NCBI GenBank assembly: GCA_963708185.1
Contig: OY970195.1
Span: 256,001-320,000, forward strand
Length of the DNA: 64,000 nucleotides
Direction of reading: 5' to 3'
Source of the DNA: Candidatus Peregrinibacteria bacterium
GTDB taxonomy: Bacteria; Patescibacteriota; Gracilibacteria; UBA1369
Shown: piece by piece, positions 24,948 through 39,669 of the stretch
Layout: the number at the start of each line of letters is the position of its first letter
Numbering within the stretch: the stretch's first letter is position 1
Made by a program: the position numbers and the translations under genes
The notes under the pieces: model-generated
What the model was told of the DNA's origin: nothing
The model's database searches: none
What the model saw: the letters and a program-made list of their open reading frames with translations, nothing else

Positions 24948-26786
24948 ATGAAAAAGCTTCTCGCTTATTTTTCAGGTGTGGCGATTCTGTTCACGACTTT
25001 CGTGAGCAGCAGTTTTGCCGCGCTTCCACCGGTGTATCTGAACTGTCATATCGTCCAGAGTTGCGCCGTTTACGTTGACGATGGGGCAGCTCCCGGAGGC
25101 GACGGTTCAAAATCCACCCCATTCCAAACCATTACCGATGCGGTCAGTTTCCTGACGAATCCGGCAAACGCCGACTTCACCACCGTTTATGTCGCAGGAG
25201 GAAACTACAGTTCAGAGTCATTGCCTTTGAGTCTCGACGGAAGTTCATATTCAAAAGGTTTTAACATCTACGGAAGTTATAATTCTTCTTTCAGCACCAG
25301 GGATTACGCTTCGACTCCGACCAATATCCAGGGGGGGAGCGTCAGCGGCGTTTTGAGTCTTAAATCAGTGGCCGGGAACGTGGACGGACTTAATATTTCA
25401 GGGACAAACGGTCCTGCGATTTCCGTTGATAACGAAGGAGCAACCACTTTGGCCGTGACTCTCAGCAACAACACCATCCACAACAACACCATGGACAGCA
25501 CCGTTGCCATGCCGATTCTCTTGAGCGGCTCCAATACCGCAACCGTGAGCAATAACGTTTTCTATAACAATGCCGTCACCAACGGGATCGTTTCCAACTT
25601 TAAAGGGAAGGTAAACGCTTATCTGAATCGTTATTACGGAAACAACGGAGGCAGTTTGAAGTGCAGTAACGGCGCGTTCGTCTATAACAACTATATTCTG
25701 GCCGATCAGGCGGATTATCTCGTTACGGCTGGTGGATCCTGTACCTTCGAAAACAACACGGTTGCCCGCAATGACATCAACGGAGGAACGAACCACGGGG
25801 TCGTCGTCATGCAAAATAACGCCAATACTGTTGCCAACAACGTCATCGCCTATAACGCAGGAGGCGATACCGTCGTCCATATCAGCGGGGACACGTCGCT
25901 TTTTGAGTATAACGCGTTGTTTTCCAACTCCAATGATCCGGCACTTGCCGATAACAATGTGAACTGCGATCCGCTCTTTTCTACGTCCGGGGGGACCGAT
26001 CCGGCAAACCACAAGCTCGGAGACGGTTCGACGTGTATCGATAAGGGCATGGACGTCGGCGGTATTTCCAAAGATTATTTTGGGAACAGCAGACCGCTTG
26101 ACGGTGACGGTGACGGCACGGCCCAGTACGATCCGGGTGCTTATGAAGCCCCGAAAGTCACTCCGCCTCCACCGGCTCCAAGCCCATCACCGAGTCCAAG
26201 TCCTTCACCAAGCCCGTCACCTTCGGCCTGCGCCGGCTTTAGTGACGTTCCGGCTTCCTACAGTGACTGTGATGCCATCACCTACGTGAAAAGCATCGGT
26301 GCCATGACCGGAAATCCGGATGGCACGTTTGCTCCAAACGGAGTACTTCAGCGTGACCAGGTTGCCAAAATCGTCCTGGAGACCTTCAATAAATACGTGG
26401 ACGGCACAAATTACTGCAATAGCTCCAATCCATTCCCGGATGTGACCTCCAGTGAATGGTCATTCCAGTATATCTGCCGCGGGAAAACCCTCGGTATCAT
26501 TACCGGATACCTTGGAGGCGCTGACGCCGGGTACTATCGTCCTGGACGTTCGGTGAATCGCGCCGAGTTCCTGGCTTTGCTGCTCCGCAATCTGAGTGAT
26601 ACGATGCCGGACATCAGCAGTTCGTCCTACATGGATGTTTCCGCGGGTCAGTGGTACAGCGGTTATGCAAAATATTCCTACGATAATTCGCTTTTCAGCG
26701 GGACGAATCTGTATCCGACCCAGGCGACGACAAGAGACGAAGTCGCTGTCGTCATCTACAAACTCCATAATCTGGGCAAAATCTAA
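24948..26786 (+). CDS. Secreted parallel beta-helix (choice-of-anchor Q-like) protein with three C-terminal SLH domains
   Basis: Signal peptide; YVD...GDGSKSTPFQTITDAV; Asn-rich NN repeats; DYFGNSRPLDGDGDG..YDPGAYE; SLH units FSDV...GNPDGTFAP...RDQ, FPDV...YRPGRSVNRAE, YMDV...TRDE. Confidence 0.85.
   Translation: MKKLLAYFSGVAILFTTFVSSSFAALPPVYLNCHIVQSCAVYVDDGAAPGGDGSKSTPFQTITDAVSFLTNPANADFTTVYVAGGNYSSESLPLSLDGSSYSKGFNIYGSYNSSFSTRDYASTPTNIQGGSVSGVLSLKSVAGNVDGLNISGTNGPAISVDNEGATTLAVTLSNNTIHNNTMDSTVAMPILLSGSNTATVSNNVFYNNAVTNGIVSNFKGKVNAYLNRYYGNNGGSLKCSNGAFVYNNYILADQADYLVTAGGSCTFENNTVARNDINGGTNHGVVVMQNNANTVANNVIAYNAGGDTVVHISGDTSLFEYNALFSNSNDPALADNNVNCDPLFSTSGGTDPANHKLGDGSTCIDKGMDVGGISKDYFGNSRPLDGDGDGTAQYDPGAYEAPKVTPPPPAPSPSPSPSPSPSPSPSACAGFSDVPASYSDCDAITYVKSIGAMTGNPDGTFAPNGVLQRDQVAKIVLETFNKYVDGTNYCNSSNPFPDVTSSEWSFQYICRGKTLGIITGYLGGADAGYYRPGRSVNRAEFLALLLRNLSDTMPDISSSSYMDVSAGQWYSGYAKYSYDNSLFSGTNLYPTQATTRDEVAVVIYKLHNLGKI
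26178..26225 (+). repeat. (Pro-Ser)8 linker
   Basis: CCA AGC CCA TCA CCG AGT ... CCT TCG; synonymous codons vary between units. Confidence 0.9.
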
Positions 26787-28002: not shown

Positions 28003-31000
28003 CTACTGCGCGACCTGGTTTTCATTGAGTTGAAGCAGATCGGTCAGTCCCGGCGGAGTATTGAGGATGATGCGTTCGTCGAAGCGGATGACCACGGAAC
28101 CCTGGTTGGCGGACGGATCACCGGCGAATTTGCGATGGGTGAAGAGGTCCTGGATGTCTCCGTAGATGGATCCGTAGAAGGTGATGTTGGTGTAGGCATC
28201 GCCGCCGTTCAAGGAAAGCAGTTTTCCGGTTCCGGCTATGTCGCCCTGCTGGACGAAGATGACGCCGGAGACGTCGGTCACCCCCGGGTCGATCTTGACG
28301 TTGCCGTTCAAAACAATGAAGGCAAGAGAAGCGGTATCGCGGACGGTGCACGGTTCGTTCTTGTTGCAGTCGCCGTACTTGATGTTGTTTTTGATGATGA
28401 GATCGCCGTTTTCAACGATGAAGGTCTTGGCTCCCTGACCGTCGTGGAGGACAAGATCCGATCCGCTGCCGAGAGTGAGGTTGGCGTTGCTCAGGTGGTA
28501 GACGCCCGTGTTCGAAGCCGGGAGACTGTCGAAGGAATTAATGACATGGCTCCAGTTGTTGAGGTTCGGTTCCCAGCGGGATACGCGCGTTTTGTTTTCC
28601 TGGATCGTTGCGGAGATGTTGCTGGAGCTCCAGCTTTCACCCGGTCTGAGTTTGACTTCACAGATCTGGCTGGAAAGGTTCGGAGCGACGGTGTTGCCGT
28701 AGAGGGTTTCGTTGCCTGTTCCCTGGAGGTTCACGTTGAATCCGGTGTTGCAGATTTCATGGCCGATCGGAACGGTGAAGCCCTGACCGGTGCTCGGGAA
28801 GGTCTGTTCCGGTGGAGCACCCGGAGTCACGATAAGGCCGGTGCTGCTTTTGTATTGTGAACATTGTGAGATGTCTTTGCCGAAGTTGAGGTCGGTTTCC
28901 AGATAGATGTCGCCCGACGCGCGGGTCAGAATGTACTGGCAGAAGCTCTGGACGACGGCGCTTTGCTGAATGCTGCCGTTGTCGACCAGGTTGGCGTTCT
29001 GCAGGTCAGGGGAGTCGTATACCGAATAGTTGGAGTTGGCTGTGTTCGGATATTTTTCCTGACAGATTTCGCTGTTGTTGCCGAGACAGTTGGCGTCGTC
29101 AATCAGGCTTCCTTGGACTTTGCCGTGATAGGTGATGGTGATGAGCTGTGTTCCTACTCTGGTTAATGTAATAACCGGTAGTGAGGAACCGTTCGGGGCG
29201 TGATCGAGTGAGTAGCAGTTTGTTTTTACGCTACTTCCATCGCACTGCGCGACGCCCTGGATGTTGAAGGAGTCGTTGTAAACGATTTTTCCTCCGGTCT
29301 GGCTGGTGCTGCCGTTGACGTAGCCTTGGACGTAACCGCTGTTCATCGTATCGGTGAGAGTGGCGTCGGTGTTCGGTGCGGTTGCGGTGAAGGTCATGGT
29401 ATAAAGGACATCTTTGTTGTCGATGGTGCCGGTCTTGCCGTTGGCGTTGTTGCTCGGGACGAGGGTCAGTGGGTTGTTGACTCCTGATTTCACGCCGTAG
29501 CTTTTTTCCGGAGCCGCGGTTGCCTGGACCGTTTTGGTGAAGTGCGGCGGCTCGGAGGCGTCTTGTAGTTTGAGATGTCACAGCTGTTCGGTCCGTTGAC
29601 GTTGACGGTCGCTCCAAGTGGGACATGTTCGCAGGAATCGCCGTTGGTATAGACGTTGGTGCCGTTGATGGTCCAGTTGAACTGACCGTTGTAATTGTTG
29701 GCAGGTGATGGGTTCAAGCACAACTCGTTGGTGTTGATGTCGTAGCTTGGGCTCACGTTCTGGCAGACCGGTGGTTGAGGCTGGAACGGAATGTTACAGG
29801 AGTTCGGTGAACTGACGGCTTCCACCTTGGTAATGAAAAGACCGGAAGGAGGAGCGTAGCAAGTGCCGTTGGTCACGTTGGTTCCGTCGCTCAGGTACCA
29901 GCGGTAGGTGTCGCTGTAGGAACTTGGGTTCGGTTGGACGCAGTATCCTCCGTTGACGTATGGCGTGCTGGAAAGAGAGTTACACTGGCTGTTCTGTGGG
30001 GGATTGTTGTAGCTGATGTCTCTTCTACAAGCGTCTTTCGAACCCAGGTTTGGTGATGCTTCAATGTGGACTGATCCTTTTGTCCCTTGTACTGATGATG
30101 TTTGATAATAGTACTGACATGCTGCTGGCACTTGCATTGATCCTGGAGAGTACAGTGATGGACAAAGCGGAGTTCCGTTCGGCCATGGCCCAAAGGTGTT
30201 GTTTATCAATGCTCCGTTTCCGGTGAGTGTCCAAGTGACATTAGCCGGAGGAGGAGGATTCGTGTTTTGCGGATTTGCTGTTAAAAATTGCGATGCTCCT
30301 CCGCTGACTGTTGATCCAACGTAGTTCAGGTTCAGGTTGCTGCAGACGTTATTTTGCTGCTGTTGGGTCATATTGAATGACGCACTGCATCCTGATTGGG
30401 GTTCTTTTGTGGCCGGATTTATTGCCGTCACGGATACAACCGTTCCGTTGCCGCCGCCGGTATAGTTTTCTACATCTGACGGTTTGTCTGTGGTTGCCGG
30501 ATTTCCTGAAGCAACTCCATTGAAAGAGCCATCTGGCGTTGCGCTCCACAAATAGTCGAGATCAGTATTTACATTTTTACCCGGGGCAATAACACTTACA
30601 GTTAGTCCATTTGTTGAATCTCCAACGTTTAATGTGCTGCCTGATATGGGCGTACCGTTGCGGAGAATCTGCAGGTTGGTACAGACGTTGCCACCGGAGG
30701 GAGTAAAGGTTATTGTTTTTTGGCAAGTTGATGGGAATTCTTGGTTGTAATTGGCCTTGTTCACACCGGTAACCGTTACAGTTACTGGAGAAGTAATAGG
30801 TCCGGTTTTGGTCAGGTTTGTGTTTGTGTTGGTATCGTAATATGTTGACGAGTTTCCATCAAAATTAATGAGTCCAGGAATACTGGCTGTCCATTTATAA
30901 TCCAGTGCAAGGCCTCCCTTTGTGGTTGGAGTGACGGTGATGTTTTTAGGAAGATCAGTATCCTGGTAAGTTGTGGTTGATGGAGTAATCGTGAGGTTTG

Positions 31001-32537
31001 TACAGTCAGGAACCTCCGGTGGCGCTACGACATCGAGATAGCCGTCACATCCGCCGCCGACCACGGTGTTCGTTCCTTTCAGGACTGCTTTAACGGTAAT
31101 ATGCGTTCCCGCGCTGCCGCCTGTATAGTACGTTTGTACGTCGTTGGCGGGAGAGCCGTTATCGCTATCGCGGTCGGTATAGGGGTTTCCTTTGCTGGTC
31201 GAGTTTTTAAAGTCCTCAAACGTCCCAGGGTCAAGAATGGTGAAATTCTGGACCGGAGTTCCAAGATTTACGTTACTGGACGATTGAACGTTGCTTTGTA
31301 CGAGTGCCGCGAGCATATTGGCTTCCATGACCTGTGCCGATCCGTTGGACGTTGCTTCCCACTTATAGTCGAGATCCGGTGGTGTTCCTGCTCCGCTGAA
31401 ATTCGGAGTAACGGTAAATGTTGTATCAGTGTTTGCTTCAAGCGTATGAGCCGTTGCGTTGTATTTTGCCGTATCTGCGGTCACCGTGAGGCTTGTACAG
31501 ACGGCGGGAGGAGTGTTTGATTTTCTCCATACCACGGCTGTGGTACCGATGGGGAACCAGTGGTAGTTGGCTTTTGATCCCCCATACGGATAGTCCTTCT
31601 GGTAACTTGAAGGGACCTGGTTGTCGACGGAACACCAGTAGGTGTAATCGCCGGCGACACTACAGAATTTATTTTCGTTGAGTTTGCTCAGGTCTGTTGT
31701 TTTTTTGATGGCGAAATCACGGATCAAGACTCTGGATGTGGTGGTCGAGCTCCAGAGGTCGGCGGCGATGTTGGTTTTGGTCGGGAGCTGGACTTTACCG
31801 AAAAATTCCCGGTTGACGTCGAGGTTCGAGTTGAATCCGCCGCCGATAATCGGGTCCAGATCCGGATTTTTCCCGAAAATTCTCGGTTTGTCGCCGGGGG
31901 TGTCGATGCCGAATGTCCAAACGACGCCGCTGGCGCTTTTTGAAACGGTTGTACCTCCCCATAATCCCGGGACGTAGCCGTCACAATCGGCGATTGCCGC
32001 GACACTTCCGCCCCAACCCGGTGGGAGATCTGTAATACAGGTGATGTTGTTGAGATCTATATTTTGTGCAACGTCCGGGGCAAAGTCGATGGCGAATTTT
32101 GCCACGTAAGATTTATAGAAATACTGCTGTCCGGAAGTTTCTTCATAGGAATCGTTGTAGTAGTAATGCTCATGTTTCCCAATAGGGACATAGTGGTTTT
32201 GGGCTCCCGATTTGAGCGGAATGTCCCCGGTATCAGTGACCGGGTTGTGGTTATAGGACTGAGCGGTGTATGGCGTGGATCCGGGAATCGTCAGATGGTT
32301 TTTACAGATGAAATCCGTAATGGTTCCACCCGGAAATTCCGCAGCTTTTCCGTTGATATACGGCGTTGCGCTTGAGCCGTAGAGTGCTGTTGCCGCCAGG
32401 TCGAACGGGAAGATCGCCAAATCGCAAAGCTGTCGCGAAATAGGATTATACGCAGCCGAAGCCGTGAGCGGTGCCACCATGAACGAGGCGATAGTGGAGA
32501 GGACAATGAGCCCGGTTGTTAAGTGTTTGTTTTTCAT
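28003..32537 (-). CDS. Large secreted adhesin-like protein (~1511 aa), split by a 1-nt deletion at ~29554
   Basis: Signal peptide ending TASA. Six Cys-led modules. ORF 29490..32537 ends in an off-composition basic tail, and adding one base reads TPPEPPHFTKTVQATAAPEKSYGVKSG into ORF 28003..29493. C-terminal beta-rich domain ends RFDERIILNTPPGL. Confidence 0.8.
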
Positions 32538-32779: not shown

Positions 32780-35700
32780 TTACGGTGCTTCGTCGGGATT
32801 GCCAGATGGCGTGTTGTCTGGGTTCCCGCTGCCGGTATCCCCACCGATCTTTCCGGGGACTGTTCCGTGTTCGCCGCCGCCTGTTTTTTCGCCAGCATTG
32901 ACAATGGATTTGCCGCCCGGTCCGCCGCCCGGTTTGTTTTCTTTCGGTGGGGGAGGTATTTTATGCGGTGGAGGAGGAGCCTCTTCGTGTCCCACTTCGA
33001 TGGTGACGACGCCGGCGAGGCCGAAGCTGACGAACTTGGCGGTCGTTTCCGGAGAAACGGTCGCGACGTTTTCTTTTCCTGCGGCCACGAGCATGCCTTC
33101 GCCCGGTTTGATGCGGGCAAAGATCTGGATGCCTTCGTTGACGCCGAACGATGCGTTCCCGCAGCGTGCGTGCGCTGCATCGGCGACTTTGGTGTCGAGT
33201 CTGAATTCAAATGAGTTGCCGTTCGGCGCGTTGTAAATAAAGGCATTGCCTCCGCTCAACTGAGTGTCGCGTATGCCTTTGAGGATTTTTTTGAACTCCT
33301 GGAATCCGGCGTTGTTCGGGTCGATGGTTTCACCGTTCAAAGCTTTCTGCATGCCCTCTACAGCCTGGTTAGCCATAGTATCTCCAAGGACGAACCACAT
33401 GCCGGGCATGGCGATGAGTTTTTTTGCGAGCGGTGATTCGGCCATTGTTTTGTCGTTGTTGCGGTCGAGAGGGCTTTCCATTTCCAGAATAACTTTTGCC
33501 AGGTCGCCTTCAACTCCCGATTTGCTCAGGTCTTCCTCATGAAGACCAAGTACGCCGTATTTGTCCTGGGTGATGTACCCCGGTACTCCGCGCAAACCTG
33601 TTCCTACGGCACCGGCGACCGAACTGAATAACCAGTTGGGGCCGAGCTGTTGTCCGGGTTTGCCAAGATCCTGATCCTGAACGTTAGAGAGTAATCTTTT
33701 GACCAGAAGGTCGGTGAGTTGTTCCGGCGTGCTGGTGATGTTGTAGCCCTGCGCCTGAAGTTCCGGGATTTTTTTGCGGAAGAAGGGCAGCAGGACGGCA
33801 TTTTTGGACCATTCAAGGTTCTGTTCAAAGCGGGCCCGTTTGTCGGGAGCTTTTTCAAGTTCTGTAAAGCTCAGATCCATGAGTTCCGACATCACGAAGT
33901 TCATCTGCAGGTCGTTGAGTTCCGTTCCAAGACCTTTCGGCGCTTTTTCCTTGGCATTGAGCTGGATAAGCGCAGCCAGGTTTTTGCGTTTGGTATTGAT
34001 GGTTTCTTCGGAATCGTTCGGGGTGACGGTGGTGTACTCCTTGTATTTCTGGAGATTGGTCCAGTTCTTGAGGAATTTTTTGCTGAAATCCTTGAGTTCC
34101 TTGACGTTTTCTGCGGTGAGATCCGGATCGGCTTCCTTGACGAAAGGAAGTCCGTTGATTTTTGCTTCGTAGGCTTTCCACTGGGCGTCGTTGAAGCCGG
34201 GAACGTTTTCGTGGAAGGTCTCCAGATTGGCTTTGTTCTGGTTGTAGTTCGCTTCGTACATCGTATTGCCGATTTGGGAGTTCGGAGCCTGGACAAGTTC
34301 CCACTGTTTACCGGATTTACGGTAGAGATAGGAACCGGACTGGCTGACTTCGTCACTGATAACGGAACGGGTTCTTTTCGGAGTGTCGGTAATCGTCACG
34401 ATGGTGTTCATCGGCGAACCTTTCTTCGGGAACGGTGTGTAAAAATCTTCACGGGTAATGAAGAGTTCTGGATTTGCTCCGGGAGCGAGGTAGACTTTGT
34501 TCCCCTTGAGGACGAGGCCGCGTTTTTCCATGCCGGGGTCCATAAGGATTTGCAAGTTGCCCAATGCTCCGAAGACCTGGAACTCCAGGAGTCCGGTTGC
34601 AGCATCGGGGACGAGCTTCATGTCGTACGGTTTGAGCGCTTCGTTATATTTTTCGAGGCTCGGCTGTTCTTTGAACGGAGCAAGATCGACCTGCGCGTTT
34701 CTTTTGCGGATGGCGATGTTGCCTTCGGCGTCAACCATGACGTCGCCGCTTTGGCCGGCCATGACTTCCTTGAATTGTACATTTGTACCGGGATTTTTCT
34801 TCTTGGCGTCGGCAACGATAGCTTCCTGGATCTGGGCTTCCGAGACTTTGTCCATGTCTTTGGAAGATTCCGATTGGCGTCGGTAGACGAGTGTGGTTTT
34901 GCTGACTGTAAAGGTAAGATAAGGCCCTACGAACGGTACCGGAACTCCGCCGACTTCGGCGAAACCTGCAACGATGCCTCCGCCGGAAATGAACGGAGCG
35001 GAGTTTTCTTTTGCAGCTTCTGTTCCGACGCTGGAGCGCCATGCCTGGTACAGGTCGAGGACGACTTTTTTCTGGGATTCAATGTCTGAAAATTGAGATG
35101 CCGCGGATCTGAAGTACGGACCGACCTTGGGGTTGTTGATGATCATCATGTACTTCTTGTCCGGATCTTTTTCGGCGTCGATCTCCTTGGTATCCACGCC
35201 TCCGATCTGGGTTTCGAGGTTTTTCTGGGCGGCTTCGAAGTTTTTACCGATTCCAATGCCTCCACCGACTCCGGCGACGAGGATTCCTGCGCTGCCTCCG
35301 GCAAACGCTTTCATGTCGAGACTGCTGGAGACCGGCCAGGTAAAGTCGATAGCTCCGCCGATGCTTGGGCCGGTAAGACCGACTCCGACACCTCCGGATA
35401 CACCGATTTCAGTTCTCTTGGCTTCGTCGAGTTTCCATCCTTTGCGGATGGCGACTCCGAGCATGGGGTTGGGGTGCGGACCAATCTGGTCGACGCCCAC
35501 TCCGACCATCAACGTGAATCCTTGGCCGAGGTCGATGCCTGTTCCAAGACCAACTCCGAATGCCTGATTGAGAGGTTTGGTGGTGTCGATCTTCAGGCCG
35601 ATTCCTCCGAGGAAAATGCTCTCGATTTTTTTGGCGTCTCCGGCCGGATAGCCTTTGGCGATGGCGTCTTCCTGGATCTTGCGGATCATCGGGTTCATCG

Positions 35701-38700
35701 AAAGCTGGGGGCCGGCTTCTTTTGATTCGGTGAGACCTTTTTCTTCATCGCGGGAATCAAAGTAGTAGCCCATGCGGATGAGGTCCTTGCGGTCCTGGAT
35801 TCTTTGTTTGTAAGCTTCGGGAGAATCTTTTTCCAGCTGCAGGTCTCCAAAGTTATTGATTTTGAGGTTTTGAAATGCGCTTTCGACGGACTGGGTCAGC
35901 ATCGGGGCGACGCGTGTCGCGTAGGCCTCGTCGGTTTCTCCGGAATTTTTTGCCGGAAGATTGACTTTGGTGGATTCGGAAGCGTATCTGTTGATGAACT
36001 CAGCTGCCGCGGTGGGGTTGTTCTTCCAGGCAATCAAACGCAGGAGCGCTTTGTGCATCAAACGGTTGAGTTCCTGGCAGGTGTCTTTTTCATTCATGCG
36101 TTCAACGCCGTCGAGTTCGCCTTTTTCGTTGGTGTATTTGTTGAGGCGGCTTCGTTCGCGCAGGACCGGGGCGTTTTCGTCGAAATATTTACCGAACGCC
36201 GTCGTGTCGGATTCGTCTTGGGACGTCCCGGCCACGACATCTTCCCAGGCAAAGGAGCGGCCGTTGGGATGGTCTTTTCTCCATGCGTCCTTGTCGCTGT
36301 CGTGGAAAACGTCGGCGAGGACTGCCGCGCATTTTCCGGTTTCCGGAGTCATTTTTTCCGGGGTGGCTGTCGCGGCTTCCTTGAACTGTTTCATCTGGAG
36401 CTGGCCGAGCGCCTGGAGGAGCATGCCACCTTCTTCAAGAACATAATTGAGGTATCCCATACGTACGGACGCCAGCCGGTATTTGTCCCATTGCTGGTAG
36501 TCCGGATCATTTTTGACTTCGTCGAGGGCTTTGACGGCCGCGACGTACTGTTTGGCCTGGTCTTTGGTCACCAGGCTGTACGGTTCCAGACCCTGCGCTT
36601 CGGCAAGTCGCATTTTTTCCTGGACCACTTTGACGATTTCAGTCTGTTTCAAGATGCCTGAACCTTTTTTGGCTTCAAAGGCCTGCATGCCCTTTTCGTT
36701 CTCTTTCATGATTTTGGTGTTTTCTTCGACTTCATCTTTATAATCACCAAGTTTTCCCGGTTCTCCGTCCTTTTTTATATAGATCTTGAAGGAATCGAGG
36801 ACATCTTCAAAATCCACGCGATCGTTTTTTCCTTCCTGGATGAGATCGAGGATTTTTTCGCGGGCGTTTTGTTCGGTAATGCCGGCTTCAACGAAGATCG
36901 GATGTTTGAGAACGGAAATGAGGTTGTCGAGTCCGGCAATTTCGGTGCTGCCTTCACCGTTCCACGCTTTTTTCCAAAGTTCGTCGTCGTTGACGGCATC
37001 AAGCATGCTTTTTCTTAAAATGACCTGGTTTTCCAGATACTGGTGCATGCTGCCGCGGAAAGCTTTTTCCGTGGCTTCGCGGTTTTTGCGGAATTTTTCG
37101 GCGTACTGATCGGCTTTGCTGGTGTAGCGTTCCTCGGCAAGCGCTTCCGCCGTCGGGATGCCGGCTTCGGTCGGGTTCGGGATGACGAGATAGAGTTCGT
37201 TTCCGGTCTGATATTTCTTCAAAAGTGCGGCGTAAGCGTCGAGTTTTTCCTGGCTCGAGAATTTGGAACCTTCAAAAGCTTTCTTGATCGCCGGAAGGAA
37301 CATGGCCTCCTGTGCAATCGACTGGTAGGTTTCACCTTCCTTGATGGTTCTCTTTTCAACATAGGAGCGTTTTTCTTGGTCGGCGAGAGATTCGCCGGTT
37401 CCTTCTTTCTCCCATGCCGGGAGGATAACGTCGCCGTCCCAGATTTCAACGCGCTGGCCGTTTTTGTAAAAGAAGGTCCCTTTGTGTTTTTCCATTTTTC
37501 CTTTGATCCATCGTACGTACTCTTTATCGGGATTGTAAAAAGCTTCCATGCTTTTTCCGCCGGAAGCGTGTTTGATGCGGATCTTGTCTCCTTCTTTGGC
37601 GTTGGGGAAAAGATCGCTGATGGTAATGAGTTTTTCGGCCTGTTTATCTCCGTTGAAGTGCACTTTGCCCGTTTCACGGTCGTAGTATTTCGCGACCATG
37701 GCTTCATCAGCGCGTTCTTCGGTCGGAGCTTTGAAAGCGACCTCTTCCGCCTTTTTCTCAGTTGCGGCGGACATGACGGTTTCTTTTCTGACCCATCCTA
37801 CGTCTTTGGAGCCGTTTTTTTCAAAAGTAGCGTAGACATATTCTTCATCGCCGACCATGCGAACGCGTTCGCTGGCAACCGTGATCCGGTCGCCTTTTTC
37901 GATCATGCGGAGCATTGTTCCCGCGAGTTTCCCTTTTCCGCTATAAAGGACGGTGTTGCTCAATACCGGGTATGTTCCTTTATTCACTTTTTCAGCGGTA
38001 TATTCTTCCTTGGTCCAGGCGTTTTCCGTTTTTAACACTTCGTCGTGGTTTTGGGCGTTCCTGAGTTTTCCGACCTCAACCCATCCGTTAAATTCGCTTT
38101 TTCCTCCGACGTATTGGTCGGCCGACATTTTAACGTAAACGAATTTTCCCATGACGCCGTTTTTCTTCGGAGCTTCAACCACGAATCCCTGCATGACTTC
38201 AGCAGGAACGTATGCCCCGCCTCTCAAATTGTCCGGCTGGAGGAATCTCCCCTGGCCCGCATCATTATAATAGTCGGGGTCCTGGATTGTCCCCATATAG
38301 CTGCTCAGATAGAGCGCACCTTTTTGTCCCGTGCCGATGGTTTCGGTCGGGCTGATACGGATCTGGTCAGGTTTGGCCTGGGGAAAAGCTTTCTTGAAAT
38401 ATTCGAGCGCCGCTTTCTGTTCGGGAGTCATCTCCGCTTTTTCTTTTTTTTCCGGAGCTACGACCGGCGCGGCCGGCTGGCCCTCCTTTTTTTCAGGGGG
38501 CTGTCCGGGAACTTCCGGTGTGGTGATGCGGGTGGCCGGTGTCGGAAGTTTGATTTCATTTTGCGCTTCGAACTTGTCGTTTTTGTAAAATTTCAGCTGA
38601 CCTTCTTCAAGACGGACGTATTTGCAGTCCGCTTCGGAAAGTTTTGAAGCATTCTGGGCGCGTGCCGCTCCGTCTCCGAAAGCGTTATCAAGCGTGTTTT

Positions 38701-38974
38701 TGGCGAATTCCTGTTTGGCGGGATTATCCGGGTAAAGTTTTTTGGCGAGTTTGTCGAAATTATCGCTCGGACCTTTTCCTGTATCCCATTCGGAAGATTC
38801 AGTTCGTTTGAGCAGGTCGCTGAGAACTTCGTTCCTTTGCTGCGGTGTCAGTTTTTCCTTGGATTCCGGAGCTGCGGCCGGTTTTTCCGGTCCTGCATAG
38901 GCCCATCGTTTCCCGCGGAAGCTCACGTCAACCTGGTGGTTGAGGAACAGTAATGTGCGTTTTTCGTTGAACAT
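32780..38974 (-). CDS. Giant hypothetical protein (2064 aa), no Sec signal; SH3-like, LysM-like and Gly-rich beta regions
   Basis: Uninterrupted 6.2-kb ORF. Domain resemblances are by eye (see findings). Confidence 0.9.
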   Translation of the reverse strand: MFNEKRTLLFLNHQVDVSFRGKRWAYAGPEKPAAAPESKEKLTPQQRNEVLSDLLKRTESSEWDTGKGPSDNFDKLAKKLYPDNPAKQEFAKNTLDNAFGDGAARAQNASKLSEADCKYVRLEEGQLKFYKNDKFEAQNEIKLPTPATRITTPEVPGQPPEKKEGQPAAPVVAPEKKEKAEMTPEQKAALEYFKKAFPQAKPDQIRISPTETIGTGQKGALYLSSYMGTIQDPDYYNDAGQGRFLQPDNLRGGAYVPAEVMQGFVVEAPKKNGVMGKFVYVKMSADQYVGGKSEFNGWVEVGKLRNAQNHDEVLKTENAWTKEEYTAEKVNKGTYPVLSNTVLYSGKGKLAGTMLRMIEKGDRITVASERVRMVGDEEYVYATFEKNGSKDVGWVRKETVMSAATEKKAEEVAFKAPTEERADEAMVAKYYDRETGKVHFNGDKQAEKLITISDLFPNAKEGDKIRIKHASGGKSMEAFYNPDKEYVRWIKGKMEKHKGTFFYKNGQRVEIWDGDVILPAWEKEGTGESLADQEKRSYVEKRTIKEGETYQSIAQEAMFLPAIKKAFEGSKFSSQEKLDAYAALLKKYQTGNELYLVIPNPTEAGIPTAEALAEERYTSKADQYAEKFRKNREATEKAFRGSMHQYLENQVILRKSMLDAVNDDELWKKAWNGEGSTEIAGLDNLISVLKHPIFVEAGITEQNAREKILDLIQEGKNDRVDFEDVLDSFKIYIKKDGEPGKLGDYKDEVEENTKIMKENEKGMQAFEAKKGSGILKQTEIVKVVQEKMRLAEAQGLEPYSLVTKDQAKQYVAAVKALDEVKNDPDYQQWDKYRLASVRMGYLNYVLEEGGMLLQALGQLQMKQFKEAATATPEKMTPETGKCAAVLADVFHDSDKDAWRKDHPNGRSFAWEDVVAGTSQDESDTTAFGKYFDENAPVLRERSRLNKYTNEKGELDGVERMNEKDTCQELNRLMHKALLRLIAWKNNPTAAAEFINRYASESTKVNLPAKNSGETDEAYATRVAPMLTQSVESAFQNLKINNFGDLQLEKDSPEAYKQRIQDRKDLIRMGYYFDSRDEEKGLTESKEAGPQLSMNPMIRKIQEDAIAKGYPAGDAKKIESIFLGGIGLKIDTTKPLNQAFGVGLGTGIDLGQGFTLMVGVGVDQIGPHPNPMLGVAIRKGWKLDEAKRTEIGVSGGVGVGLTGPSIGGAIDFTWPVSSSLDMKAFAGGSAGILVAGVGGGIGIGKNFEAAQKNLETQIGGVDTKEIDAEKDPDKKYMMIINNPKVGPYFRSAASQFSDIESQKKVVLDLYQAWRSSVGTEAAKENSAPFISGGGIVAGFAEVGGVPVPFVGPYLTFTVSKTTLVYRRQSESSKDMDKVSEAQIQEAIVADAKKKNPGTNVQFKEVMAGQSGDVMVDAEGNIAIRKRNAQVDLAPFKEQPSLEKYNEALKPYDMKLVPDAATGLLEFQVFGALGNLQILMDPGMEKRGLVLKGNKVYLAPGANPELFITREDFYTPFPKKGSPMNTIVTITDTPKRTRSVISDEVSQSGSYLYRKSGKQWELVQAPNSQIGNTMYEANYNQNKANLETFHENVPGFNDAQWKAYEAKINGLPFVKEADPDLTAENVKELKDFSKKFLKNWTNLQKYKEYTTVTPNDSEETINTKRKNLAALIQLNAKEKAPKGLGTELNDLQMNFVMSELMDLSFTELEKAPDKRARFEQNLEWSKNAVLLPFFRKKIPELQAQGYNITSTPEQLTDLLVKRLLSNVQDQDLGKPGQQLGPNWLFSSVAGAVGTGLRGVPGYITQDKYGVLGLHEEDLSKSGVEGDLAKVILEMESPLDRNNDKTMAESPLAKKLIAMPGMWFVLGDTMANQAVEGMQKALNGETIDPNNAGFQEFKKILKGIRDTQLSGGNAFIYNAPNGNSFEFRLDTKVADAAHARCGNASFGVNEGIQIFARIKPGEGMLVAAGKENVATVSPETTAKFVSFGLAGVVTIEVGHEEAPPPPHKIPPPPKENKPGGGPGGKSIVNAGEKTGGGEHGTVPGKIGGDTGSGNPDNTPSGNPDEAP

Positions 38975-38983
38975 AGACGTTTC

Positions 38984-39538
38984 TTAGGAAATTTTATTAG
39001 GCGGGACATCGGGGAGCTCTCCTTTGAGAGCCTGGAGCGCTTGCATCGTCTGGTTCATCATTTCCTGTCTGCGCAGAAGGTATTCGTGGGTAACGGTACC
39101 TTCGCGGTCGATTTTCATTTCAAGAGGTTTGTAAAGTTCGGAAAGCATGATTTCATTGGAGCCTTTCGGTCCGGCAAAGAAGCGGAGGTCACCGTTGATG
39201 ATGGCGATAGTTTTGCAGTTTTTGCTTTGAAGGAACGCCCAGGCGTCTTCCACCGTTTTTCCCTCGGCCAGGTTGCTCTGGAGATTCTGTTTGATGCTTT
39301 CAGCGTTGAGCAGATTGTTTTTTTCCTGGGCCTTTTTGCCGAGATCGTTCAAGGCGAGGTTGAGGTCAGGATTAAAATTCGATTCAACGTTGAGATTGGT
39401 GTTGAATTTCTTCTCGATACGTTCCGCCAGGCTTCCGGGAGCCGGCGGTTGGGCCGAAGGTTTTTCCATTTTCTGGAAAACAAATTTTGCCTTCGTGAAG
39501 CTTGTTTCTTTGTTTTTGAGATACAGCAGGTTGTGCAT
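38984..39538 (-). CDS. Hypothetical protein (184 aa), paralog of the N-terminal domain of the 2064-aa protein
   Basis: Shared LL[FY]L...SF...EKP leader and L....CK......G.L.F core; stop 9 nt before the next ATG. Confidence 0.8.
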   Translation of the reverse strand: MHNLLYLKNKETSFTKAKFVFQKMEKPSAQPPAPGSLAERIEKKFNTNLNVESNFNPDLNLALNDLGKKAQEKNNLLNAESIKQNLQSNLAEGKTVEDAWAFLQSKNCKTIAIINGDLRFFAGPKGSNEIMLSELYKPLEMKIDREGTVTHEYLLRRQEMMNQTMQALQALKGELPDVPPNKIS

Positions 39539-39669
39539 AATTTTTGGGGTTTGTTTGTGTTTTTGAGTTTTTTGGTTTTAGTTAATCATAAAATTATAGC
39601 AAAAAACGCTAAAACTTGCAACGGTTTCGTGCCTTCGGTTAAAGTGGGGGTACCTTCAATTTTTACGTT

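Follow-up and report, generated by a model that had tools for sequence, protein, structure and literature searches.

A lineage-restricted N-terminal leader on a small and giant protein pair of Candidatus Peregrinibacteria and its possible role in Sec-independent export

The window considered here, that is the whole stretch of DNA that was analysed, comprises 64,000 nucleotides of contig OY970195.1 (positions 256,001 to 320,000) from a Candidatus Peregrinibacteria bacterium, one of the CPR (candidate phyla radiation) bacteria, whose genome is a single contig of 1.437 Mb with an estimated completeness of 99%. Two genes on the minus strand, separated by 9 nucleotides, encode a small protein of 184 amino acids (P0001; 38984..39538, in window coordinates as for all genes of this locus) and a giant protein of 2064 amino acids (P0002; 32780..38974), both starting with a leader of about 35 residues that is followed by a shared alpha/beta domain. 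The leader is a novel signature, real, conserved and broader than first noted, which recurs at the N-terminus of further proteins of the same genome (G000) and of its relatives. In our reading, it could serve to address proteins, by a route independent of Sec, to the cell surface, into the medium or into a host cell, and the small protein would be the partner or targeting factor of the giant; we estimate the chances of this proposal to be about even.

An earlier note on this DNA had proposed, from an alignment made by hand, that the two adjacent proteins share a leader and a domain. This is confirmed, and the similarity extends beyond the stretch first marked. BLASTP reproduces the hand alignment, with 33 identities in 141 positions (26.2 bits, E 0.003 as a single comparison) running collinearly from residues 2 and 6 to residues 132 and 143 of the small protein and the giant, respectively; alone, this result is marginal, the raw pair reaching an E of about 0.5 in a genome-wide tblastn. 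Pairwise alignment with shuffle statistics is significant: the Smith-Waterman score of P0001 against residues 1-200 of P0002 is 78 vs 34.7 +/- 5.8 for shuffled sequences (Z 7.5), and none of 2000 shuffles scores as high, neither for the whole region nor for the leader alone (Z 7.5) or the core alone (Z 5.6). In addition, a profile of the small protein built from 19 orthologues was run against the 18,801 six-frame open reading frames (ORFs) of at least 40 amino acids in the own genome. It retrieves P0001 with 165.5 bits and residues 65-207 of the giant ORF with 25.3 bits (E 1.2e-5), the next match having an E of 0.26; when the three rows from the own genus are removed, the giant is still matched (21.1 bits, E 2.2e-4). 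The same profile recognises 12 of 20 giants of relatives at E<=1e-5, with the best stretch within residues 26-204, the other 8 being matched more weakly or missed. Finally, hhalign aligns 23 small proteins with 20 giant N-termini over 127 columns, comprising both leader and domain (Prob 98.6, E 5.2e-16). Shuffles, profile and hhalign all support the view, already taken in the earlier note, that the giant's N-terminal module exists as a separate copy in the small protein. As judged from sequence comparison, P0001 is a paralogue, standing by itself, of the first ~150 residues of its giant neighbour.

The leader covers residues 1-32 of the small protein (39443..39538) and residues 1-36 of the giant (38867..38974), where an in-frame stop lies 3 codons before the ATG. 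Its core consists of an aromatic residue (F-x3-R pattern), a near-invariant Arg 4 residues later and then a hydrophobic-[V/I/A]-aromatic stretch; this is followed by Gly/Pro/Glu/Lys-Pro and by a linker rich in Pro, Glu, Lys and Gln, the whole being predicted as disordered. A first-round model, made from the first 50-60 residues of the giants and of the leader-bearing small proteins, matches the N-termini of further ORFs of the own genome, each starting at Met. Because circularity had to be avoided, the model was rebuilt from relatives only (44 sequences). The relatives-only model finds six proteins of the own genome at E<=0.01, all at the start Met, the best reversed-ORF decoy having an E of 0.38. 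Specifically, these are the giant (E 1.8e-8), proteins of 537 aa (E 9.9e-7) and 373 aa (E 7.1e-6), the small protein P0001 (E 3.6e-4), and proteins of 710 aa (E 0.009) and 293 aa (E 0.01).

Among the relatives, the leader is matched in 22 of 26 genomes of the family at E<=0.05 and in 20 of them at E<=1e-3, and a single genome can have as many as 9 matches. At E<=1e-3 it is matched in 9/55 genomes outside the family in the same order, and in 5/74 from other orders of the class. For all of the best 20 matches in relatives that were not used for training, an in-frame stop precedes the start by 0-13 codons; the ORFs concerned range from 48 to 1960 aa. The earlier note had surmised a lineage-specific targeting peptide and looked to its recurrence on unrelated proteins for support; such a recurrence is found and, together with the strict N-terminal position and the lineage restriction, is established at the level of sequence. 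The DNA upstream of 10 leader genes holds no common motif beyond A-rich stretches. No description of the leader was found in the literature searched, which includes the consulted portions of PMC4736985, PMC8080830, PMC12857230, PMC12102498 and PMC13622651 and does not cover supplementary tables.

The proteins carrying the leader differ in what follows it. Beyond residue 60, no pair among nine proteins of the own genome (eight with the leader and a 1139-aa protein encoded in the gene island described below) reaches Z>5, in a rough comparison with 60 shuffles each. For eight own-genome proteins other than the pair (six with a leader, the 1139-aa protein of the island and a small helical partner), Pfam has no family. 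Within a set of 20 leader proteins from relatives, a GDSL/SGNH lipase-acylhydrolase domain is present above the Pfam cut-off in three and below it in one more, one protein has LRV/HEAT repeats, another weak TPR matches, and most have no family. With respect to composition, leader proteins contain 0-0.5% Cys and 23-34% charged residues and have no window resembling a transmembrane (TM) segment, in comparison with 2.4% Cys in the Sec-exported neighbour of the giant.

The largest group of leader genes forms an island (genome positions 1132746-1145756) in which four leader proteins (1086, 293, 537 and 373 aa) are interleaved with four small helical proteins of ~107-125 aa, and which also holds the 1139-aa protein, provided with a Gly-rich hydrophobic segment and devoid of a leader. 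The four small proteins constitute one family (E 1.5e-17, 1.1e-13, 7.4e-11 and 5.9e-4; best decoy 0.027), whose members (~105-130 aa) are interleaved with leader proteins in the own genome and in 3 other genera. The island adjoins a FemAB-like gene, ftsZ and ftsA, a layout that recurs in three other genera (G019, G023, G024). Two small ORFs of the island located directly upstream of leader proteins (genome 1132746-1133108 and 1142305-1142661) are the sole 2 of the 18,801 ORFs to end in [IL]L[KR]K[LI], an ending that, on sequence grounds, could represent a C-terminal tail for docking common to both. The two small ORFs that precede leader proteins other than the giant have no pairwise similarity to their large neighbours (Z 0.2 and 1.6). 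At another locus (genome 191730-201527), three pilin-like genes and one PilX-like gene belong to a type IV pilus operon, which is followed by the gene for methionyl-tRNA synthetase (MetRS) and then by that of the 710-aa leader protein; in the genomes G017 and G018 the equivalent place, between the PilX-like gene and MetRS, is occupied by a small/large cassette. As a separate observation, two candidate leader proteins of 573 and 864 aa are encoded next to each other at genome 550399-554719 (minus strand). The C-terminal part of the 573-aa protein looks like an alpha/beta hydrolase by eye, with no Pfam family; its only match among PDB sequences, apolipoprotein A-I (E 0.01), was taken as reflecting coiled-coil composition.

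The shared domain is predicted with good confidence by AlphaFold2 (AF2). In the small protein it spans residues ~46-135 (39134..39403), with strands (E) and helices (H) at E50-54, H59-73, H79-89, H96-105, E110-114 and E117-121 and a predicted local distance difference test (pLDDT) value of 85-93 over the core residues 46-140. In the giant it spans residues ~41-150 (38525..38854), with H44-56, E59-62, H69-80, H85-99, H102-114, E119-123 and E126-130 at pLDDT 88-95. The two models have in common the order of a strand, three helices and a beta-hairpin, with core pLDDT 85-95 overall, and in both the leader is modelled as disordered (pLDDT <50 in the small protein). The predicted folds thus present the same order of secondary structure in the small protein and in the N-terminus of the giant; the identity of fold rests on this order and on the profile alignment. 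The small protein continues with a long predicted C-terminal helix (residues 148-174; 39017..39097), conserved in the small-protein alignment and with no counterpart in the aligned region of the giant.

As for the spread of the domain, which is ~85 residues long, only P0001 and the giant possess it among the 18,801 ORFs of the own genome. A search of the small-protein profile against 1.84 billion representative proteins gives 88 matches at E<=1e-3: 77 of the proteins are 51-321 aa long, 10 are giants (1729-2283 aa) in which the match falls on residues ~14-197, and the remaining one is P0070, a repeat protein of 2168 aa. The latter was treated as an unrelated repeat protein, its 9-10 weak pieces (2.6-8.8 bits) all falling on profile positions 93-136, which correspond to the hairpin part. 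By these profile searches the alpha/beta domain is restricted to the small/giant pair, and the idea that the trafficking domain of the earlier note is a general one finds no support. Neither P0001 nor P0002 matches any family of Pfam, NCBIfam or PHROGs above the curated cut-off. Foldseek against pdb gives a best E of 0.85 for the shared domain, with no clear fold, and in a VIA-align comparison with 48,161 chains the highest Z is 4.3 for P0001 (3zzi_A, rmsd 3.2, 64 aligned) and 3.9 for the giant N-terminus (4psn_A, rmsd 3.7, 75 aligned). The domain as modelled has no clear match among known folds and may be regarded as a fold-level orphan.

The two proteins are also predicted to bind each other. 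Modelling of residues 1-165 of the giant together with the small protein gives a complex score of 0.82 in two of three runs and of 0.00 in the remaining one (median 0.82), the best of 3 controls scoring 0.01. A score of that mark is reached by 58/80 solved complexes and by 2/110 mismatched pairs, a calibration that holds only roughly here because own alignments were used; agreement of contacts between the runs is at least 0% and the pLDDT of the partner at least 56. In the best run the interface is reciprocal: residues 142-153 of the giant lie on the hairpin (113-119) and the helices (70-89) of the small protein, residues 131-148 of the small protein lie on the hairpin of the giant (125-128), and neither leader takes part in it. 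That is, the small protein and the N-domain of the giant are predicted to form a pseudo-symmetric heterodimer with the leaders free, in which the segment following each domain is packed against the hairpin and helices of the partner.

The pair belongs to a cassette conserved across the Peregrinibacteria family, composed of the small protein, the giant and a Sec-exported Cys-rich protein. Relatives of P0001 occur in 18 of the 24 other family genomes searched and in 1/16 genomes from other families of the order; with P0001 as query, no relative was found in a separate collection of genome contigs. At all 15 primary loci of relatives that reach far enough, a small protein (150-225 aa) is followed by a giant (1790-2280 aa) and then by a signal-peptide protein, and the latter has a conserved N-terminal Cys-x-Leu...Pro-aromatic-Asn start in 15/15 primary cassettes reaching that far. 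The genes for triosephosphate isomerase (TIM) and ribosome hibernation factor (HPF), or a Wzy_C-like gene, lie upstream. Two genera have a second, shorter cassette, in which a pseudopilin-like gene, a small protein and a 1145-1316-aa protein precede MetRS. The cassette proteins have no family in Pfam, NCBIfam or PHROGs and no counterpart among PDB sequences.

The giant itself is conserved from end to end. Twenty giants align over their whole length, and residues that do not vary are found as far along as position 1940 of 2064. The earlier note had drawn an analogy with polymorphic effector systems, which does not fit the giants, their C-terminus not being variable. Pfam gives two single weak matches for the 20 giants (E 0.0074 and 0.01) and a toxin family for 0/20. 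In the PDB sequence search nothing is found for P0002 and the giant profile has a best E of 0.27, and in the ESM Atlas residues 151-2064 reach a best score of 0.76, below the usable level. The central region (residues ~1115-1260; 35195..35632) is Gly-rich and moderately hydrophobic, with conserved Gly columns, and contains the Kyte-Doolittle maximum of the protein; the C-terminal tail (32783..32977) is of low complexity, rich in Pro and Gly, and partly conserved (P2010, G2033). Arg1902, Cys1938 and Asn1940 are invariant in the 20 giants and Glu1947 is near-invariant; residues 1902-1947, in the conserved C-terminal part, may form a catalytic or metal site, as far as sequence can tell.

Downstream of the giant, the third cassette gene (29490..32537, minus strand) encodes a protein of 1015 aa with a classical signal peptide (Kyte-Doolittle mean over 19 residues of 1.86 at residue 10) and 24 Cys (2.4%), built of repeated Asn/Thr/Ser-rich units and a basic C-terminal tail. 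It is followed by an ORF of 496 aa (28003..29493, minus strand), rich in Asn, Thr, Ser and Cys, with a GTG start and a 4-nt overlap with the preceding stop, which is probably a fourth gene; alternatively, both ORFs may belong to a single surface protein that is split over two frames. Neither has a family in Pfam, NCBIfam or PHROGs, and a match to LAETG (14.8 bits vs a cut-off of 30 bits), under threshold, is the sole family match for P0001, P0002 and these two proteins. A promoter-like site, TTGCAA-17-TATAAT with TG (39593..39621, minus strand), is the best of the region by consensus match only and lies ~55 nt upstream of P0001; in a scan likewise limited to consensus, no minus-strand terminator-like site appears downstream of P0001 before 27576. 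The genes for triosephosphate isomerase, ribosome hibernation factor and a Wzy_C-like protein lie upstream of P0001 and are divergent from it. Elsewhere in the window (24948-26786, plus strand), a 612-aa protein combines a right-handed beta-helix with two S-layer homology domains.

What kind of signal could the leader be? The earlier note had described it as lacking a hydrophobic h-region and as being neither Sec, Tat nor prepilin-like, and both statements hold. The maximum Kyte-Doolittle mean over 19 residues is 0.42 in P0001 and 1.57 in the giant, the latter at residue 1224, far from the N-terminus and under the TM threshold. A Sec signal was rejected since no 19-residue window exceeds 1.6 in 10 leader proteins, compared with the value of 1.86 in the Sec-exported neighbour. 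A Tat signal was likewise discarded: there is no h-region, and the best TatC match in this nearly complete genome has 16.7 bits vs a cut-off of 25.1 and 2 stops inside. A double-glycine leader, processed by a peptidase-containing ABC transporter (PCAT), would need Peptidase_C39 (PF03412), found in 0/1 genome here, the control being found in 7/14 genomes. A prepilin signal consists of G|F(T/S)L(I/L)E and a hydrophobic helix, and the leader proteins have neither, while true pilins elsewhere in the genome do have the motif. Finally, a WXG100 or LXG module of the type VII secretion system (T7SS) does not agree with the models, which have a strand, three helices and a hairpin and not a helical bundle; for PF01580, a single match exceeds the cut-off and lies in a 758-aa frame. 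A second PF01580 match, of 18.7 bits, lies inside a VirD4-like gene. With one gene of the FtsK_SpoIIIE family over the cut-off, there is therefore no second EssC-like candidate.

With regard to motors, the own genome encodes three ATPases of the T2SS-E/PilB/PilT type, a VirB4-like match of 18 bits that is under the cut-off, and three paralogous, membrane-anchored TraG-D_C/VirD4-like ATPases of 826-908 aa (genome 420609-423335, 509835-512396 on the minus strand, and 535213-537693). The VirD4-like ATPases are present in about 3 copies in 26/26 family genomes, and none is near a clear VirB4 in the own genome. Being found in all 26, they do not co-vary with the leader and are therefore not discriminating. 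According to the consulted portions of PMC12102498, Patescibacteria have thousands of VirD4 homologues, mostly away from virB4 and possibly exapted. The part of PMC12857230 at hand describes the secretion system of type IV (T4SS) in Patescibacteria as essential for epibiotic growth. According to the sections of PMC12857230 and PMC12102498 consulted, the sole genetically tractable CPR case cannot do without its T4SS and type IV pili, the substrates of which are not known.

If the leader is an address tag, the machinery that recognises it would be different from Sec, Tat and C39 ABC exporters, and it would most probably direct Cys-poor proteins devoid of TM segments to export, surface display or host-cell delivery. 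The small protein would act as the cognate partner or targeting factor of the giant, and the other leader proteins would have small helical partners of their own in the conserved island next to ftsA and ftsZ. As to the translocation motor, the three VirD4-like ATPases and the type IV pilus apparatus would be candidates only. The context is compatible with export: some leader proteins of relatives carry a GDSL/SGNH hydrolase, the giant is apparently in an operon with the Cys-rich signal-peptide protein, and one leader gene lies by a minor-pilin operon. A more specific version of this proposal would make the leader the mark of an undescribed pathway, independent of Sec, for export or host delivery in Peregrinibacteria and neighbouring CPR, which may run through the orphan ATPases of the VirD4 type or through the machinery of the type IV pilus; it is advanced only tentatively.

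Several observations weigh against the proposal of an address tag with a partner protein. The leader is missing from 11/23 small-protein orthologues, whose giants mostly keep it, and is therefore dispensable on the small partner. One of the three complex runs scored 0.00. Four more candidate leader proteins (1086, 573, 864 and 82 aa) come from a model including own-genome rows, or were recognised by eye. The VirD4-like ATPases also occur in 4 family genomes that have no leader match, and in the neighbourhoods of the leader genes no adjoining secretion ATPase or channel is found, the nearest VirD4-like ATPase being ~13 kb away. In addition, the Cys-poor, charged and TM-less composition fits cytoplasmic proteins as well as injected ones, and the position of the largest leader-gene cluster by ftsA, ftsZ and femAB could indicate a role in the divisome or in envelope synthesis instead.

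The main rival explanation builds on these last points. The leader could be a short linear motif that docks to a hub inside the cell, for instance to FtsA/FtsZ, to the synthesis of peptidoglycan bridges or to the basal body of the pilus, and the leader proteins would then be cytoplasmic scaffold or regulatory proteins, tethered through a disordered linker, that are not exported. Such docking would fit the composition of the proteins and the island conserved by ftsA, ftsZ and the FemAB-like gene in the own genome and 3 other genera; another leader gene stands beside the minor-pilin operon and a PilT-like ATPase, and no dedicated exporter is found nearby. It fits less well with the GDSL/SGNH hydrolase cargo of 3/20 leader proteins from relatives and with the apparent co-transcription of the giant with a Sec-exported Cys-rich protein, and we infer that ten unrelated bodies of up to 2064 aa gathered on one hub would be unusual. 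All considered, docking seems to us possible but rather improbable.

The leader might otherwise be the best-conserved remnant of a fast-evolving paralogous family, or a co-translational or regulatory element of the nascent peptide, in either case devoid of an addressing function, with the small protein as a duplicated fragment having an unrelated structural role. The bodies are of low complexity, helix-rich and fast-evolving, so that common ancestry could be hidden from the pairwise scores on which their comparison was based, and the leader genes are clustered as tandem paralogues would be. However, the leader sits at the exact N-terminus in 20/20 cases on bodies that differ in kind (GDSL hydrolase, HEAT/LRV repeats, giants), its Arg is almost invariant while the rest diverges, and the small protein, with its confidently folded domain, is kept in most of the other family genomes searched. 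This makes such an origin unlikely.

A polymorphic toxin/immunity or effector/immunity pair, in which the giant would be a toxin bearing a trafficking domain at its N-terminus and the small protein would be the immunity protein or a displaced N-terminal cassette, is brought to mind by a small gene adjoining a large one with an N-terminal module common to both, and by the Gly-rich hydrophobic segment of the giant, which could insert in membranes. Yet the giants align end to end and have invariant C-terminal residues in place of variable toxin tips, none of the 20 has a toxin family in Pfam, both the resemblance and the predicted binding of the small protein concern the N-terminal domain and not a C-terminal toxin domain, and the cassette lies in fixed housekeeping synteny by TIM and HPF across genera; we consider this explanation very improbable. 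That the similarity is due to chance or composition and the ORFs are not a functional pair, as the raw genome-wide tblastn value could suggest, is refuted by the profile results in the own genome, with hhalign, the shuffles, the search of 1.84 billion proteins and the conserved synteny also standing against it, and has a negligible probability.

The leader could bear on the way in which epibionts of the CPR/Patescibacteria act on their hosts, and it gives a concrete list of candidate substrates, with 6-10 unannotated proteins per genome including the conserved giant, lipase-like enzymes and small partners. The near-invariant Arg offers a one-residue handle on targeting. If the leader does mark an export route, the substrate set would become legible from genomes and would consist of giants, hydrolases of the GDSL type and repeat proteins, all of them accompanied by small partners; even a motif for docking within the cell would tie a group of 'dark' proteins to a single hub close to division genes.

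Among known systems, T7SSb, type VI and type III secretion, the last with its effector/chaperone pairs, are the most alike in the way a substrate works together with a partner. The LXG effectors of T7SSb pair with small targeting partners of the Lap/WXG100-like type. As in that system, an N-terminal module is found here on large, diverse proteins with no Sec signal, a small partner gene adjoins, and a heterodimer with the N-domain is predicted. In contrast, the N-domain is here alpha/beta and not a helical bundle, with no match in sequence and no clear match in fold to solved chains, the signature is a disordered leader at the extreme N-terminus, and only one gene of the FtsK_SpoIIIE family is found over the cut-off. 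The arrangement of an LXG effector with a small partner is also described in the consulted part of PMC13622651. The leader resembles a Tat n-region in its basic and hydrophobic/aromatic K/R-R-x-V-F core but has no h-region, and the Gly-Gly or Gly-Ala found 2-4 residues after the core recalls the GG cleavage site of PCAT substrates, in a genome without Peptidase_C39.

Effectors of the type VI secretion system carry the N-terminal delivery motifs MIX, FIX and RIX. The leader is likewise a short conserved N-terminal signature on unrelated proteins of one lineage, by which a substrate set could be listed from genomes. Its motif sequence is different, and CPR bacteria are monoderm, according to the part of PMC12857230 consulted. 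As to the T4SS and orphan VirD4 of Patescibacteria, three VirD4-like ATPases are encoded here, in line with the statement in the consulted portions of PMC12102498 that most such genes lie away from virB4. The signature described here is N-terminal, its genes neither adjoin nor co-vary with those of the ATPases, and the VirB4-like match is sub-threshold. Known protein substrates of T4SS carry C-terminal signals instead. A further parallel is offered by TcpF and CofJ, whose secretion depends on type IVb pili: a flexible N-terminal segment binds a minor pilin, after the membrane has been crossed by means of a Sec signal. The leader shares with them the use of a flexible N-terminal peptide as a putative recognition element and, in this genome, a genomic link to minor pilins, whereas the leader proteins have no Sec signal.

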